Below are positions 14,720 through 62,662 of a stretch of 64,000 nt of DNA, piece after piece. Source of the DNA: a virus. The notes beneath the pieces were generated by a model. The model was not told where the DNA came from, did no database searches, and saw only the letters and a program-made list of their open reading frames with translations. Location of the stretch: the IMG/VR virus record IMGVR_UViG_3300029931_000011, one strand, 5' to 3'. Both the position numbers and the translations under genes were made by a program. Each line of letters starts with the position of its first letter. Position 1 is the first letter of the stretch.

Positions 14720-15030
14720 CCGCGCTCGTCGTCACCTTCGCCATCCTCATCGCGATCGCCATGAGCGGGTACGCGCTCTGGTGCATGGTCCGCCATCATC
14801 GGACGAGGACCGACTGGAATCCGCTCGGGCGCGACCGCGCCGCGCGCATGTCGCTCCTCGGCACGATGCCGTGCGTCGACTGCCTCGGCGACCTCGGCCA
14901 GTGCCGGCCGTGGTGCGTGCGCGCCGGCGGACGCGGCGACAACCTGCAGGGCGACCGCGACTCGAGGCGCGTTGACGACCAGGATCGCCAGGTCGCGCGC
15001 CGCACGCGGCGCAGGGCGGTGGCGGCGTGA
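14716..15030 (+). CDS. Membrane-anchored small protein (104 aa)
   Basis: Tail of track ORF 14524..15030 from Met65, with an ATGA overlap. N-terminal TM segment TALVVTFAILIAIAMSGYALWCMV, then CVDCLGDLGQCRPWC. Confidence 0.5.
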   Translation: MTALVVTFAILIAIAMSGYALWCMVRHHRTRTDWNPLGRDRAARMSLLGTMPCVDCLGDLGQCRPWCVRAGGRGDNLQGDRDSRRVDDQDRQVARRTRRRAVAA

Positions 15031-15638
15031 CCCGCCCCATCGTCCTCCTCGATGTCGACGGCCCGCTCGCGCTGTTCGTCGAGGCGTGCCAGGCCGAGCT
15101 CGCCGGCCACGGCGTCTACCGCGAGGCTGCCGCCGTCAAAACGTTCCGTCTCGAGGAGGCGTGGAGCCTGTCGCCCGACCAGAAGCAGATCCTCGCGCGC
15201 GCCTACAAGCGTCCAGGGTTCTGCGCTGGCATCGCGCCGCGCGAGAAAGCGCGAGAAGCCGTCGAGCGCCTGCGCGGCATCGCCGACGTCTACGCGGTCA
15301 CCGCGCCGATGTGGAGCGGGCCGACGTGGCAGCACGAGCGCACCGAGTGGCTCGTCGATCACTTCGGGTTCCAGCGCGACCACGTCGTTTCGACGTCGGC
15401 AAAGTACCTCGTCGGCGGCGACGTGCTCGTCGACGATCGCGCCGAGACGCTGGTGATGTGGGAGCGACACGGGCGGGCGTCTGGTGTCGGCGTGCTGTGG
15501 GCGATGCCGCACAACTTCAACGCGTGGGCCAACGGCGAGTGGGACGGCGACCGGACTAGCGACTGGCAGGTCGTGATCAACCTGGCCGAGCGACTGGCAG
15601 GCGCGCGCGATCCGCAGGAGGCGACGCGTCGTGCGTGA
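15027..15638 (+). CDS. 5'(3')-deoxyribonucleotidase (HAD superfamily)
   Basis: Track ORF of 203 aa. The N-terminal LLDVDGPLA is HAD motif I. Overall length and layout fit the NT5C-type phage nucleotidases. Confidence 0.65.
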   Translation: MTRPIVLLDVDGPLALFVEACQAELAGHGVYREAAAVKTFRLEEAWSLSPDQKQILARAYKRPGFCAGIAPREKAREAVERLRGIADVYAVTAPMWSGPTWQHERTEWLVDHFGFQRDHVVSTSAKYLVGGDVLVDDRAETLVMWERHGRASGVGVLWAMPHNFNAWANGEWDGDRTSDWQVVINLAERLAGARDPQEATRRA

Positions 15639-27788: not shown

Positions 27789-27914
27789 ATGACCCCGATC
27801 CGCGCCCTCGCCGCCATCCTGACCGCCATGCTCGTCCTGGGGGCGTGCGGGGACTCAGGCCCCGGGGAGGACGGCGAGCTGCCGGCGGCGTTCACCGTGA
27901 TGGAGGTACACTGA
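27789..27914 (+). pseudogene. Truncated 5' fragment of a lipoprotein gene (41 codons)
   Basis: Tail of track ORF 27444..27914: MTPIRALAAILTAMLVLGACGDSGPGEDGELPAAFTVMEVH*. It has a lipobox (LGAC) and shares GEDGELPA(A/G)F with the intact lipoprotein at 28558. Confidence 0.6.
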
Positions 27915-28650
27915 TGCCCCCGTTCGTCGACTACACCGGGAAGCGATTCGGAGCCCTGGTCGTTGAAGGGAAGGCGGCGCAGACTGCCCACGGCAAGTTC
28001 CGCTGGTCGTGCCTGTGCGACTGCGGCGCCCGGACCATCGTGGAGGGGCGGTGCCTGAAGAGCGGCGGCGTGAGCTCCTGTGGATGCCAGCGGCGTGCGC
28101 GAATCAGCGCGAAGGCACGGGCGCGCTGGGGTGACCCGCTTGCGCTCAAGGAGAACAACCCGGTCGAATACAATGCGTGGGCGAACATGATCAATCGCTG
28201 CGAGAACCCACGTAACAAGTTCTTCTCGAACTACGGCGGTCGAGGCATCAAGGTCTGCGCCGAGTGGCGTGAGAGCTTCGCGCGCTTTCTTTCCGACATG
28301 GGCAAGCGCCCATCGCCGGGGCACTCCCTCGATCGCATCAAGGGCGACGGGAACTACACGCCGCTCAACTGCCGATGGGCGACCCGAGTTGAGCAGAACC
28401 GAAACCGACGCAACTGCCTCGAGCCCCACGAGCCTGACCAGATCCGGTGGCTTCGCGCCAGTGGGTACACGAATCGTGAGATCGCCTGCTTCTTCGATGT
28501 GCACTATTCCTCGGTCGCCCGCATTGCCCAGGGGCGTACATGGACGGAGGCTGCGTGATGCGTACATGGTTGGCTGCGGTCGCGGTCGCGGTGATCGCCG
28601 CGTGTGGTGGTGGCGGCGGGGGCGAGGATGGGGAGCTGCCGGCGGGCTTT
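27894..28650 (+). mobile_element. Putative nuclease-gene cassette (P3 plus a replacement 5' end of the lipoprotein gene)
   Basis: Bounded by the two GEDGELPA(A/G)F coding segments, 27864-27893 and 28621-28650. By my count 24 of 30 nt are identical. They are 757 bp apart. Confidence 0.5.
27914..28558 (+). CDS. Degenerate-HNH (DRID-type, here DRIK) nuclease-like protein, paralog P3, with C-terminal HTH
   Basis: C-terminal 214 aa (MPPFVDYTGKRFG...) of track ORF 27584..28558. Contains CLCDCG...SCGC. Core YGGRGIKVCAEWRESFARFLSDMGKRPSPGHSLDRIKGDGNYTPLNCRWATRVEQNRNRRN. TGATG junctions at both ends. Visibly more A/T-ending codons than its neighbours. Confidence 0.75.
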   Translation: MPPFVDYTGKRFGALVVEGKAAQTAHGKFRWSCLCDCGARTIVEGRCLKSGGVSSCGCQRRARISAKARARWGDPLALKENNPVEYNAWANMINRCENPRNKFFSNYGGRGIKVCAEWRESFARFLSDMGKRPSPGHSLDRIKGDGNYTPLNCRWATRVEQNRNRRNCLEPHEPDQIRWLRASGYTNREIACFFDVHYSSVARIAQGRTWTEAA

Positions 28651-29001
28651 GAGGTCAACGCGACACGAACGGATGGCGGTGGACCCGTCGTGAGCTGTCC
28701 GTCCACGCCGTCTTGGCGTGCGTGGTTCGAGGATGTGTCCTCCACCGGCGCGACCCTCACGCCGAATGGCGCCAGTGGGCCTGGGGCATGGGTGTGCGGG
28801 GCGCCGATGCGCGTCGACGGCGCGTGGGTCGTAGGCTGCGAGGCGAATACCGGAAGCGTCACGGTTTCGTCGGTGTTCACCTTCGCCGACGCTGGCGGAG
28901 GAGTGATCGATCACGTCGGAACCTTCAACGCTGACGGGAGCGCCGCCTGCGCCTCGTCGTACCGCATCGACTCCATCGTCGAGGACCTCGACGGCCCGTG
29001 A
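28558..29001 (+). CDS. Lipoprotein
   Basis: Track ORF 28540..29001 trimmed to Met7. MRTWLAAVAVAVIAACGGGGGGEDGELPAGF has the lipobox IAAC. The mature part contains several Cys. Confidence 0.65.
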   Translation: MRTWLAAVAVAVIAACGGGGGGEDGELPAGFEVNATRTDGGGPVVSCPSTPSWRAWFEDVSSTGATLTPNGASGPGAWVCGAPMRVDGAWVVGCEANTGSVTVSSVFTFADAGGGVIDHVGTFNADGSAACASSYRIDSIVEDLDGP

Positions 29002-60518: not shown

Positions 60519-61313
60519 ATGCCCTCGTTCCTCTCCCGCCTTCTCGCGCCCTTCCTCGCGACGTGGCGCCAGCTCCTCACGCCGCCCGCCATCCCGTCCA
60601 CCGACGTGCTGATGAGCGAGACGGAGTCCGAGATCGATGCCGACGTGATCGAGGCATGCGGCAAGCTGGCGATGGCACGCCTGACCGAACTGTGGCGGCA
60701 GGATATCTACGACCCTCGCCACACCGAGACGAGCGAGAACGCCGAGCGGTGCCGCGCTGCGATCCTCGACATCATCCACAACGGCGGCGGGTGGCGGTGG
60801 ATCAAGCGATACGGCGGCGACGGCGCACCCGCGGCAGAGCACGCCGAGTGGTGCGGCTTCACGCAGGCGTGGGCGTGGGCGCCGTGGATCCCCGAGGAGA
60901 CGCGGAAGACGTGGTGGGCGTCGACGTACCGGCTCGATGCGTGGGCGCGCTATGCGGCGCTCGACATGAGCGGGAAGACCACGCCGAACCCGAAGCCGGC
61001 GCGCGGGCCCTTCCGCCTCTACGTCAAGCTCGACGAGCACTCGACGAAGCTTCCATTCCAGCCGCAGGCCGGTGACATCCTGCTCGTGGGCGACGGGAAG
61101 CCTGACTACGGCGACCACGTCTGCGGCGTGCTCGGGTACGACGAGAAGCGGCGGATGTTTTCTACGTTAGAAGGAAACGGCGGCGGCCTAGGGCCAGATG
61201 GAAAGAAGCAGCACGGTCTAGTGAAGGCCGAACGCCCCCTTGGGGCGACGTCCGGTCACTCGTACCACGCGCGGCGCCTCATCCGGCTTTCGCCGTCGGA
61301 CCTGATTCCGTAG
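60519..61313 (+). CDS. Endolysin, CHAP/NlpC-P60-like cysteine peptidase-amidase
   Basis: Track ORF of 264 aa. Candidate catalytic Cys in AEHAEWCGFTQAWAW. His in GDILLVGDGKPDYGDHVCGVLG, followed by STLEGNGGG. Confidence 0.65.
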   Translation: MPSFLSRLLAPFLATWRQLLTPPAIPSTDVLMSETESEIDADVIEACGKLAMARLTELWRQDIYDPRHTETSENAERCRAAILDIIHNGGGWRWIKRYGGDGAPAAEHAEWCGFTQAWAWAPWIPEETRKTWWASTYRLDAWARYAALDMSGKTTPNPKPARGPFRLYVKLDEHSTKLPFQPQAGDILLVGDGKPDYGDHVCGVLGYDEKRRMFSTLEGNGGGLGPDGKKQHGLVKAERPLGATSGHSYHARRLIRLSPSDLIP

Positions 61314-61985
61314 CCCACGCGCCGTCGTTGAGTACGTGGCTGACGGCTGACTCCGAGCAGCCGACCGCGTCGGAGATGGCCTTGTAGCTGTTGCCTTCTG
61401 ACCGCAGCGCGCGAATGCGTTCCGCCTTCTCCGGGGTGAGAACGACACCGCGACGATTCCTCGCCTGTGTCGTCGGCAGCGCCCACCGGCAGTTGCCCGG
61501 CTCGTAACCCTTGGTGCCGTCGACGCGATCGATGGAGTGACGCTTCGACGGGCGCGGGCCCATGTCGGCGAGGAACGCCGCGAAGCTCTCGCGCCAGCGG
61601 TCGCACACGGTGATTCCGCGGCCGCCATAGTCCGCGTAGTCGCCGCAGTTCGTGTCGGCGCACCGCTGGCGCATCCGCTTCCACAGGCCGAAGTCCGGGT
61701 GGCGTCGCTCGTCAGCGCGAGCGAGCCCATGCCTGAACTTGACCCTCGAGATACGCTCAGCCGCGCCCTCGCGCTGAAAGCATCCGCACGAGCGGGTCTT
61801 GCCGTTGCGAAGGGTTCCTGCGCGGACCACTAGTTCGCCGCCGCAGTCGCAGCGGCAGTGCCATGCAGCGTCTTTCCACTCGGGCTTGGCGACGCGCTCG
61901 ATGACGAGAAGCCGCCCGAACCGCTGACCGCGCAAGTCAATGAATGCCGGCATGTGACATCGATAGTCACGAATACCGGCGGCGC
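61224..61985 (-). mobile_element. Putative nuclease-gene cassette (P4 plus a replacement 3' end of the endolysin gene)
   Basis: Bounded by two 90-nt copies of the endolysin 3' end, 61224-61313 and 61986-62075, 762 bp apart. Confidence 0.5.
61279..61953 (-). CDS. Degenerate-HNH (DRVD) nuclease-like protein, paralog P4, with C-terminal HTH
   Basis: Track ORF of 224 aa. Contains CRCDCG...SCGC. Core YGGRGITVCDRWRESFAAFLADMGPRPSKRHSIDRVDGTKGYEPGNCRWALPTTQARNRR. Its 3' end overlaps the endolysin 3' end by 35 bp in antisense. Confidence 0.75.
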   Translation of the reverse strand: MPAFIDLRGQRFGRLLVIERVAKPEWKDAAWHCRCDCGGELVVRAGTLRNGKTRSCGCFQREGAAERISRVKFRHGLARADERRHPDFGLWKRMRQRCADTNCGDYADYGGRGITVCDRWRESFAAFLADMGPRPSKRHSIDRVDGTKGYEPGNCRWALPTTQARNRRGVVLTPEKAERIRALRSEGNSYKAISDAVGCSESAVSHVLNDGAWATESGPTAKAG

Positions 61986-62075
61986 AAGGCCGAGCGACCG
62001 CTGGGCGCGCGCTCGGGCCACGGCTACCACGCGCGACGGCTGATCCGCGTGGCCCCGCACGACCTTATCGGGTAG
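61986..62075 (+). pseudogene. Displaced 3' remnant of the endolysin gene
   Basis: Translates KAERPLGARSGHGYHARRLIRVAPHDLIG*; the live gene end is KAERPLGATSGHSYHARRLIRLSPSDLIP*. By my count 23/29 aa and 62/90 nt are identical. Confidence 0.7.
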
Positions 62076-62321
62076 CTAGCGCGCGTCGAAACAGCCGCGC
62101 GGGCACTCGTAGCCATCCTCGTACACCGTGCCGCAGCGGCCACACGTGACCATGCCGTGGTCGCGGCAGCGCGCGCAGAGGCGCGGCTCGGAGCCGAGGT
62201 GGACAGCCAGGAACTGCGGCCCTTCGATGCTGGGATCGGGCGCGGCCGCCGGGTTGTCGCGCCGCTCGCCGCAGGACGGGCAGTGGAAGGAAACGGGGAC
62301 GATCACGTTTCGCGCTCCCAT
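62076..62321 (-). CDS. Small zinc-ribbon protein
   Basis: Track ORF of 81 aa. Contains CPSCG...CARCRDHGMVTCGRCG...CPRGC. Confidence 0.5.
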   Translation of the reverse strand: MGARNVIVPVSFHCPSCGERRDNPAAAPDPSIEGPQFLAVHLGSEPRLCARCRDHGMVTCGRCGTVYEDGYECPRGCFDAR

Positions 62322-62662
62322 GATGCTGGCTGCGGTCGCGCGGCTGTGTCGAGGTCGATGTTCTCGAATGCCGTGTGCTCCTCGGGACGGATGAGTACCT
62401 GCACGAAGTCATCGTCGACGTCCTCGGGCTCGATCGCGGCGCGCACTACAGCGACAAGGTTCTCGACGTCGAGGTGATTGACGGCACCGACGAGAACGCG
62501 CCCGTTCATGATCTTCGACCCGTCGTGTGCATGGTCGGCGACGGCGAAGAGGCGAACGCTTTGGCTCTCCCACAGCGCGGTGTTGATGCGATCGATCATC
62601 CGCTGCTCGACCTCGGGGTCGCCGGACGGGATCGCGACGATGACGTCGGTGACGCGGCTCAT
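62303..62662 (-). CDS. Hypothetical protein
   Basis: C-terminal 119 aa (MSRVTDVIVA...) of track ORF 62303..62872, with an ATGA overlap. Confidence 0.5.
   Translation of the reverse strand: MSRVTDVIVAIPSGDPEVEQRMIDRINTALWESQSVRLFAVADHAHDGSKIMNGRVLVGAVNHLDVENLVAVVRAAIEPEDVDDDFVQVLIRPEEHTAFENIDLDTAARPQPASWERET

Follow-up and report, generated by a model that had tools for sequence, protein, structure and literature searches.

In the mitochondria of several fungi, an endonuclease open reading frame (ORF) has brought a foreign, in-frame C-terminus to the gene that it entered and left the native C-terminus downstream; such mORF "gene hybrids" are known from atp6 of Allomyces macrogynus, from atp6, atp9, cox2 and nad3 of Glomus sp., from Rhizopus atp9 and from Mortierella cox2 (PMC3630166, citing Paquin et al. 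1994). When these hybrids are compared with a sister taxon, identity is 91-98% for the native copy but 64-81% for the inserted one (PMC3630166). Here, we describe a comparable locus in a phage. It lies in a 64,000-nucleotide stretch of viral DNA (IMG/VR record IMGVR_UViG_3300029931_000011; the whole stretch is called the window below), in which P4, a gene resembling free-standing homing endonuclease genes (HEGs), is located between two copies of the 3' end of an endolysin gene.

Parts of this arrangement have counterparts in other described systems. The free-standing seg and mob endonucleases of T4-like phages are responsible for intronless homing and marker exclusion (PMC2988022). Their genes are intergenic or split a host gene into two polypeptides, as in Aeh1 nrdA, T4 gene 39/60 and gene 43 of phage 25, and the review of these phages has no mention of duplication, hence none of a carried replacement end or a relic (PMC2988022). 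ICP1-type HEGs use CapR-like zinc-finger DNA-binding modules and form "HEG islands" at recombination boundaries (PMC10448857). Among engineered systems, the synthetic HomeR drives place a nuclease cassette in an essential gene together with a recoded, cleavage-resistant version of its downstream part (PMC7968924).

Our data indicate that a mobile cassette, in which P4 is interlocked with the foreign last ~50 codons of an endolysin, has probably been inserted in the 3' part of a CHAP-like endolysin gene. The anatomy of the locus is clear: the foreign end and the nuclease-like gene form one unit, the native end persists as a relic, the arrangement recurs in other lineages and a corresponding empty site exists. 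The imported end continues the reading frame and makes the enzyme complete, and the gene's own last 29 codons are displaced 762 bp downstream, where they are untranslated; a nuclease-like gene here occupies coding sequence without splicing and without splitting the protein. An earlier reading of the sequence (hereafter the original prediction) had proposed that the insertion brings a replacement end for the gene that it breaks, and the hybrid gene, the native relic and the pair of contigs L022 and L001 support this proposal. Nuclease-driven homing combined with target immunity is a plausible origin of the locus, in which the nuclease activity, the cut site, the immunity of the live end, the repair route and the transcription of P4 are all predicted from sequence. 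The coordinates of the features are listed in the table.

Features of the endolysin locus and of the related lipoprotein locus (positions in the window)
Feature	Position	Strand	Basis
Hybrid endolysin, 264 aa, divergent CHAP-like peptidoglycan hydrolase, native body with imported 3' end	60519..61313	+	ORF, homologs, AlphaFold model
Imported replacement 3' end, ~codons 213-264 and stop, with E-G-N motif and last three beta strands	61155..61313	+	identity drop, maximum chi-square
Cluster of A/T-ending codons in the imported tract	61158..61220	+	codon composition, binomial
Live copy of the duplicated end, 29 codons and stop	61224..61313	+	two-copy alignment
Antisense interlock, P4 3' end over endolysin 3' end, 35 bp	61279..61313	.	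overlap repeated in L021, L022
P4, free-standing homing-endonuclease-like gene, 224 aa	61279..61953	-	ORF, PHROG, Pfam, model
Leader of 32 nt from P4 start to relic, right end of the cassette	61954..61985	-	alignment
Relic, native endolysin 3' end, 29 codons and stop, severed from its gene	61986..62075	+	alignment to live end and relatives
Convergent Cys-rich gene, 81 aa, stop abutting the relic stop, last of the leftward gene string before P4	62076..62321	-	ORF
Relic lipoprotein ORF, beginning MTPIRALAAILTAMLVLGAC, signal peptide and lipobox, TGA overlaps P3 ATG	27789..27914	+	ORF
Live lipoprotein, ATG overlaps P3 TGA	28558..29001	+	ORF

The second copy of the endolysin end is not a chance resemblance, as a tblastn search of the window with the endolysin retrieved it at E 1.2e-9 and a tblastx comparison of the left and right flanks of P4 gave E 6e-13. 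The two copies (61224-61313 and 61986-62075) have the same orientation, lie 762 bp apart, translate as KAERPLGATSGHSYHARRLIRLSPSDLIP and KAERPLGARSGHGYHARRLIRVAPHDLIG, respectively, each followed by a stop codon, and are identical at 62/90 nt and 23/29 amino acids. Eleven codons are identical (stop counted), 13 carry synonymous changes at the third position only and 6 are non-synonymous; the differences at codon positions 1, 2 and 3 number 6, 4 and 18. Realignment reproduced the nucleotide, amino acid and third-position counts of the original prediction. Overall, 28/90 nt differ, and the five consecutive codons for ERPLG differ synonymously between the live end and the relic; such differences would be compatible with resistance of the live end to cleavage. 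A Nei-Gojobori estimate on the 90-nt copies, a check proposed with that prediction, gave pS 0.69, pN 0.17, dS ~1.9 and dN 0.19, that is, a dN/dS of ~0.1, and the synonymous excess is highly significant (Fisher p 3e-6). Synonymous sites are near saturation and amino acids are conserved, in agreement with the proposal that the copies are alleles from two diverged lineages and not a recent in-place duplication. Both copies were coding during almost all of their divergence; the purifying selection belongs to the history of the two copies before the insertion and carries no implication of present selection on the relic.

The relic retains all eight residues of its span that are invariant or nearly so in the family (R239, P240, G242, Y249, R252, R253, I255 and R256/D261), and its stop falls at the stop position of the endolysin family. 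Because the C-terminal consensus ...RAxRPLGxxxGxxYxARRLIRPAPxDLL is conserved across the endolysin family, both copies are genuine family ends. Homology between them breaks off sharply 5' of the Lys codon K236, and no endolysin homology was found in the window 5' of the relic. On the minus strand, the relic is part of the untranslated stretch 5' of P4. Gene callers report it as a 43-aa ORF (P0257, 61944-62075, beginning MPACDIDSHEYRRRKAERPLG), which has entered public protein sets and is likely to be an artefact that P4-type insertions create in annotation.

The origin of each copy was assessed by codon-by-codon comparison with the two closest P4-less relatives, the endolysins of loci L004 (P0001) and L001 (P0002). 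Nucleotide identity of the window endolysin to these genes is 83-88% before ~61155-61185 and ~60% beyond; measured from 61155, it is 85-88% over the preceding 300 nt and 50-65% afterwards, and third-position identity drops from 75-85% before 61155 to 25-45% beyond. Maximum chi-square analysis placed breakpoints at 61160 (p 9e-8) and 61183 (p 3e-5), and we estimate that the left limit of the imported tract, a putative recombination breakpoint, lies at 61155-61185. The relic matches L004 at 60/87 and L001 at 61/81 positions, compared with 52/87 and 47/81 for the live end, and the protein-level comparison concurs that the relic is nearer to the P4-less relatives. Because identity falls at ~61155 and the relic is nearer to these relatives, the live end from this point on is foreign and the downstream copy is native. 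The original prediction was right about which end is foreign and which is native, but its limits for the insert have to be revised: the imported tract begins ~40-70 nt 5' of the duplicated part, and the native equivalent of that stretch is gone.

This additional stretch has an unusual codon composition. At 61158-61220, 11/21 codons end in A or T, compared with 17/213 upstream (binomial p 1e-7) and with 18.5% in P4 and the live tail (binomial p 5e-4); the remaining endolysin codons are ~92% G/C-ending. The breakpoint and the duplicated part flank this run, which covers exactly the stretch that has no native counterpart in the relic and may represent either a recoded nuclease target or a trace of donor composition.

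P4 and the imported end are physically interlocked. The last 35 bp of P4 (61279-61313) are antisense to the live endolysin end, as originally described. Because the P4 ORF stops within the antisense of the last 11 endolysin codons, transfer of the whole of P4 carries at least 35 bp of the endolysin end, and the interlock thus guarantees linkage between the nuclease gene and that end. In a set of 5.8 billion protein clusters, P4 has only three close relatives, one of which is a shorter call from the window's own phage. The other two, on the metagenomic contigs L021 and L022, adjoin endolysin ends. The L021 homolog is 78% identical to P4 and overlaps endolysin P0003 in antisense by 35 bp (1589-1623), and the L022 homolog, which is full-length and 67% identical, has a 35-bp interlock with a live endolysin end (1737-1771). 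This recurrence bears out the idea that P4 and the endolysin end travel together. In L021 (1589-3738), a serine recombinase gene (Pfam Resolvase, Recombinase) directly precedes the P4 homolog on the same strand. Scans of IMG/VR and GTDB with the P4 alignment yielded no close relatives, and a scan of IMG/VR for the interlock DNA pattern gave 0 matches. INPHARED contains no match to the locus by DNA (distant mode) or by endolysin protein, only short matches to other HNH genes. The window's phage (~65.7 kb) is 100% identical over 60519-62321 in all ten contigs examined (L023-L032; several JGI, ENA and SRA samples), and the cassette is thus fixed in its population.

More importantly, a filled and an empty site can be compared directly. 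L022 contains a second endolysin end, PLGGSHGYIARRLIRVGPQDIA followed by a stop codon, beyond the start of the nuclease gene, and 573 nt of its downstream flank (969-1541 of the reverse complement) are 99% identical to L001 (4784-5356), which has an uninterrupted endolysin. Compared with the native end of L001, the L022 relic is identical at 62/66 positions (94%) and the L022 live end is 74% identical. L022 is therefore the filled version of L001, and the search for P4-less endolysin alleles, suggested with the original prediction, thereby yielded a pair with flanks 99% identical. The L022 relic is also identical at 61/66 positions to L033, which belongs to the same clade, and falls within the natural variation of the clade. 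A chimera of donor and recipient, considered for this relic in view of its four L001 mismatches clustered at the junction, was ruled out, as two of the four, GGG and CAC, are L033 states. The relics start at K236 in the window and at P240 in L022; the insertion points are 12 nt apart. In 46 other loci that contain endolysin relatives, there is neither a P4 homolog nor a second endolysin end.

Between the relic and the 99% identical block, L022 has 118 nt (851-968 of the reverse complement) where L001 has 27 nt, and owing to this segment the small convergent protein has a different C-terminus (91 versus 83 aa). An import of the 118 nt from a window-like donor was ruled out: the segment shows no similarity to the window and has no counterpart there.

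The interrupted gene belongs to a divergent family of peptidoglycan hydrolases. The window endolysin itself has no direct match in Pfam or PHROG. Several of its 158 homologs match Pfam CHAP or PG_binding_1; Pfam CHAP was found in 3/25 aligned members, and precomputed annotations give CHAP for many homologs. In the family alignment, C112 and H200 are invariant and the E218-G-N220 motif is conserved. The AlphaFold model (pLDDT 94) has chains of the CHAP endolysins Ly7917 and PlyGRCS as its top six PDB folds, all weak matches (prob 0.82-0.99, E 0.008-0.035), and C112/H200 corresponds to the papain-like Cys-His pair of a CHAP fold. A search of PDB sequences with the endolysin profile returned only designed Kelch-repeat proteins, which were dismissed as spurious. 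Small membrane-protein ORFs lie immediately 5' of the endolysin and would fit a lysis module. The replaced segment holds E218/N220 as well as the last three beta strands, so that the enzyme would very probably be inactivated if the insertion brought no replacement end. The anatomy is that of a homing-type cassette which, unable to leave by splicing, carries a substitute for the gene part that it displaces.

P4 matches PHROG 374 "HNH endonuclease" (E 6e-62) and four other HNH or restriction-endonuclease PHROGs, the names of which are annotations, not assays; its putative function as a nuclease follows from this homology-based annotation. The protein consists of an N-terminal WxCxCDCG...SCGC zinc finger (CapR-like), a conserved core and a C-terminal helix-turn-helix (HTH), the latter with HTH_38/HTH_23 matches; Pfam CapR was found in 3/56 P4-family members. 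In the family alignment, N154 is invariant, N166 is nearly invariant and most, but not all, members have H139 (consensus HSIDR); P4 contains every family-conserved residue. The P4 model (pLDDT 88) has strands at 140-143 and 155-158 and a helix at 160-167, a predicted beta-beta-alpha arrangement around H139/N154/N166. Many homologs have two or three tandem DLxGxRFGRL...WxCxCDCG...SCGC fingers, and a few have a C-terminal HNH/HNH_5 or AP2; this family layout is modular, "beads on a string", like that of the ICP1 nucleases.

P4 is co-oriented with the leftward gene string that begins at 62076 and is probably transcribed from it, through the relic as an antisense leader. A scan for promoter and terminator consensus sequences found nothing. 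Upstream of the P4 start, the 12-mer ATAGTCACGAAT (61963-61974) is conserved in L022. The junction between the relic stop and the gene at 62076-62321 is the original gene boundary; in the P4-less loci L001 and L004, a small convergent gene likewise directly adjoins the endolysin stop. A comparison of this gene in L001 with its positional counterpart in the window showed that the two are not homologous.

The window encodes three paralogs of P4, namely P1, P2 and P3. P3 (27914-28558, plus strand) is bracketed by two copies of the 5' end of a lipoprotein gene, the duplicated parts of which (27825-27899 and 28582-28656) are identical at 44/75 nt and 16/25 amino acids. The original prediction had seen P4 as mirroring this lipoprotein case; the correspondence is real, but it is a mirror image, in which the 5' end is replaced, the orientation is sense and stop/start overlaps occur on both sides. 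The P3 case suggests that gene-end replacement is a habit of the P4 family. Flanking duplicates were also looked for around P1 and P2, and none were found.

We tentatively hypothesize that the P4 family may constitute a natural phage "home-and-rescue" drive, which would cut within the reading frame of a gene that the phage needs, at a motif conserved in the catalytic domain, and would carry a re-coded, cleavage-immune replacement for the 3' end (P4, endolysin) or the 5' end (P3, lipoprotein) of that gene. For the endolysin locus itself, we propose the following mechanism. During co-infection, the nuclease of a cassette-bearing phage would cut a cassette-less endolysin gene near codons 233-240 (G-I/L-V-K-A-E-R-P-L-G). 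The left break end would lose a few dozen bases by resection and be repaired by copying the donor via homology in the gene body, generating the breakpoint at ~61155-61185, and copying would then proceed through the donor gene end and the nuclease gene. The right side would be rejoined at or near the cut, so that the recipient end would survive from K236 in the window or from P240 in L022. Because the imported end has many synonymous differences from the target, the new allele would be both functional and uncuttable.

Several observations weigh against a cassette of this kind. None of the Pfam HNH models matched the 56 P4-family members at E <= 0.1, P4 has no sequence match in PDB and its model has no significant fold match there. 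Some family members additionally contain a canonical HNH domain, so that the conserved core of P4 may have a role other than catalysis. The cassette was found in only three lineages, and no P4-less variant of the window's own phage occurs among the ten contigs examined; the two insertions could also represent one event that was spread by ordinary homologous recombination. The L021 homolog lacks the first ~63 codons and is not accompanied by a relic; its finger domain, and a relic if there was one, seem to have been lost in a later rearrangement. A donor of the live end was sought without success: no tail among 120 homologs is more than 69% identical, the tail alone retrieved nothing from the 5.8-billion-protein set, and a full phmmer scan of 1.84 billion representatives gave at most 66% identity apart from the relic ORF P0257. 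The synonymous "immunity" signature of the live end is weak: the cluster of A/T-ending codons is not seen in L021, and CGC-CCN-CTT-GG was ruled out as a signature exclusive to cassette-linked ends, as the P4-less L005 has the same codons.

Some of these observations would suit passive mosaicism, in which ordinary recombination brought the endolysin end with P4 as a passenger and the segment was then spread or inherited without homing. Phage genomes are mosaics, catalytic evidence for P4 is absent from the Pfam HNH, PDB sequence and PDB fold searches, protein searches did not find the donor of the live end, the locus is fixed in the window's phage and does not vary, and the distance of 12 nt between the right junctions indicates that there is no precise site. 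However, the same gene position was struck in two lineages, with each relic native to its own clade, and this genome contains four members of the P4 family, the annotation of which is homing-type HNH endonuclease. In addition, the paralog P3 shows gene-end replacement at an unrelated gene, and nuclease genes are documented at boundaries of genetic exchange in phages (PMC10448857). We consider a history without homing unlikely.

Alternatively, the endolysin 3' end might have been duplicated in tandem within its own locus, after which the two copies diverged and P4 was inserted between them; their shared orientation and their spacing of 762 bp would fit such a history. This scenario is very improbable, as an untranslated copy would evolve neutrally, yet pS is 0.69 and pN 0.17; moreover, the divergent tract reaches 5' of the repeat with a sharp breakpoint, and L022 and L001 reveal an insertion into a 99% identical background. 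It is also highly improbable that the downstream copy is the remnant of a second complete endolysin-like gene unrelated to P4, such as an old paralog or a gene of a neighbouring prophage, which the original prediction had named as a case that would refute it. Nothing but the existence of the fragment speaks for such a gene, whereas its homology begins abruptly at K236 with nothing endolysin-like upstream, the relic stop abuts the convergent gene exactly as the intact endolysin does in P4-less relatives, two endolysin ends or genes occur in 0/46 related loci, and the L022 relic shares 94% identity with the only endolysin end of L001, which is native. Group I introns that encode HNH endonucleases are known from phage lysin genes, and P4 could in principle reside in a self-splicing intron or an intein, the two ends being exon or extein features. 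We give this explanation almost no credence: an Rfam scan of 60900-62400 found no intron or ribozyme match at E <= 1, group I introns included, the live gene has its own in-frame stop (61311-61313), P4 is antisense and overlaps the live end, and splicing needs no second complete copy of the end.

Taken together, the inserted cassette most closely matches the mORF gene hybrids, with which it shares a foreign C-terminal segment, an endonuclease ORF and a native duplicate downstream. As in those hybrids, the native copy is closer to the relatives than the inserted copy: in L022 the relic and the live end are 94% and 74% identical to L001, values near the mitochondrial ones, and the window relic behaves likewise towards L004 and L001. 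The mORF hybrids, however, are organellar, involve LAGLIDADG or GIY-YIG ORFs and have the ORF in the same orientation, often in phase, whereas P4 is a phage gene, antisense, and encodes an HNH-annotated zinc-finger and HTH protein. The 35-bp antisense interlock and the 5'-end version in the same genome are further differences from the mORF hybrids. The P4 locus thus seems to work like the mORF gene hybrids by analogy and is not a member of the set. Integrative elements that enter tRNA genes restore the 3' end of the gene by means of an integrase and near-identical att repeats. The P4 cassette resembles them in carrying a replacement for the displaced gene end. It differs from integrase islands in that its repeats are only 69% identical and no recombinase is found among the window ORFs around the locus; the serine recombinase beside the L021 copy is absent from both the window and L022.

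In common with the T4-like HEGs, P4 is a stand-alone gene beside a conserved phage gene, its presence varies and donor flank is co-converted, and both appear to use a neighbouring transcription unit. P4 is an ORF of its own on the opposite strand, outside any intron or intein; its presence and absence at one site among close genomes is seen in L022 and L001 and in the 46 P4-less loci; and the breakpoint at 61155-61185, upstream of the insertion point, is consistent with co-conversion of flanking donor sequence. Like the ICP1 HEGs, the P4 family has a CxC...CGC finger that is often tandem in homologs, and the gene lies exactly at the boundary between native and foreign sequence. Unlike P4, the ICP1 HEGs have T5orf172 or AP2-associated HNH catalytic modules, and no gene-end duplication is described for them (PMC10448857). 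The HomeR drives share the logic that insertion keeps gene function and failed repair does not (PMC7968924); they are engineered, Cas9-based and eukaryotic, whereas the immunity of the P4 replacement end is a prediction. Our literature search found no phage account of a replacement gene end carried by a nuclease gene, although its coverage of subscription journals was incomplete and an earlier description is possible.

The locus extends a mechanism of fungal mitochondria to phages and to another nuclease family. It involves no new principle, but as a natural example in phages it is clean and can be tested directly. It also explains short orphan ORFs such as the 43-aa relic and abrupt identity breakpoints within phage genes. 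If the P4 family does act as a drive, it would represent a third mode for homing endonucleases inside phage genes, beside introns or inteins and gene splitting, and a systematic source of hybrid phage genes and of orphan gene-end relics. A natural counterpart of the home-and-rescue logic would also be of interest to the gene-drive field. For such studies, the empty L001 and the filled L022 provide a ready test pair, and the live and relic ends of the window are a candidate pair of resistant and sensitive targets. In the endolysin, the last three beta strands and the E-G-N motif of a CHAP-like enzyme have been exchanged between lineages ~40% diverged in DNA, and the hybrid gene is maintained in a phage that has been found in many samples.

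The two remaining paralogs differ from P4 in architecture. P1 (3865-4707, minus strand, 280 aa) has the finger, the core and the HTH, and is extended by ~50 codons at the N-terminus and by a hydrophobic segment, AAAIDLGIALVMAGIAALKAKEE, at the C-terminus. P2 (15631-16143, plus strand, 170 aa), which directly follows a 203-aa ORF (15027-15638), has no N-terminal zinc finger and a different C-terminal HTH, and it may be a reduced or degenerate copy.

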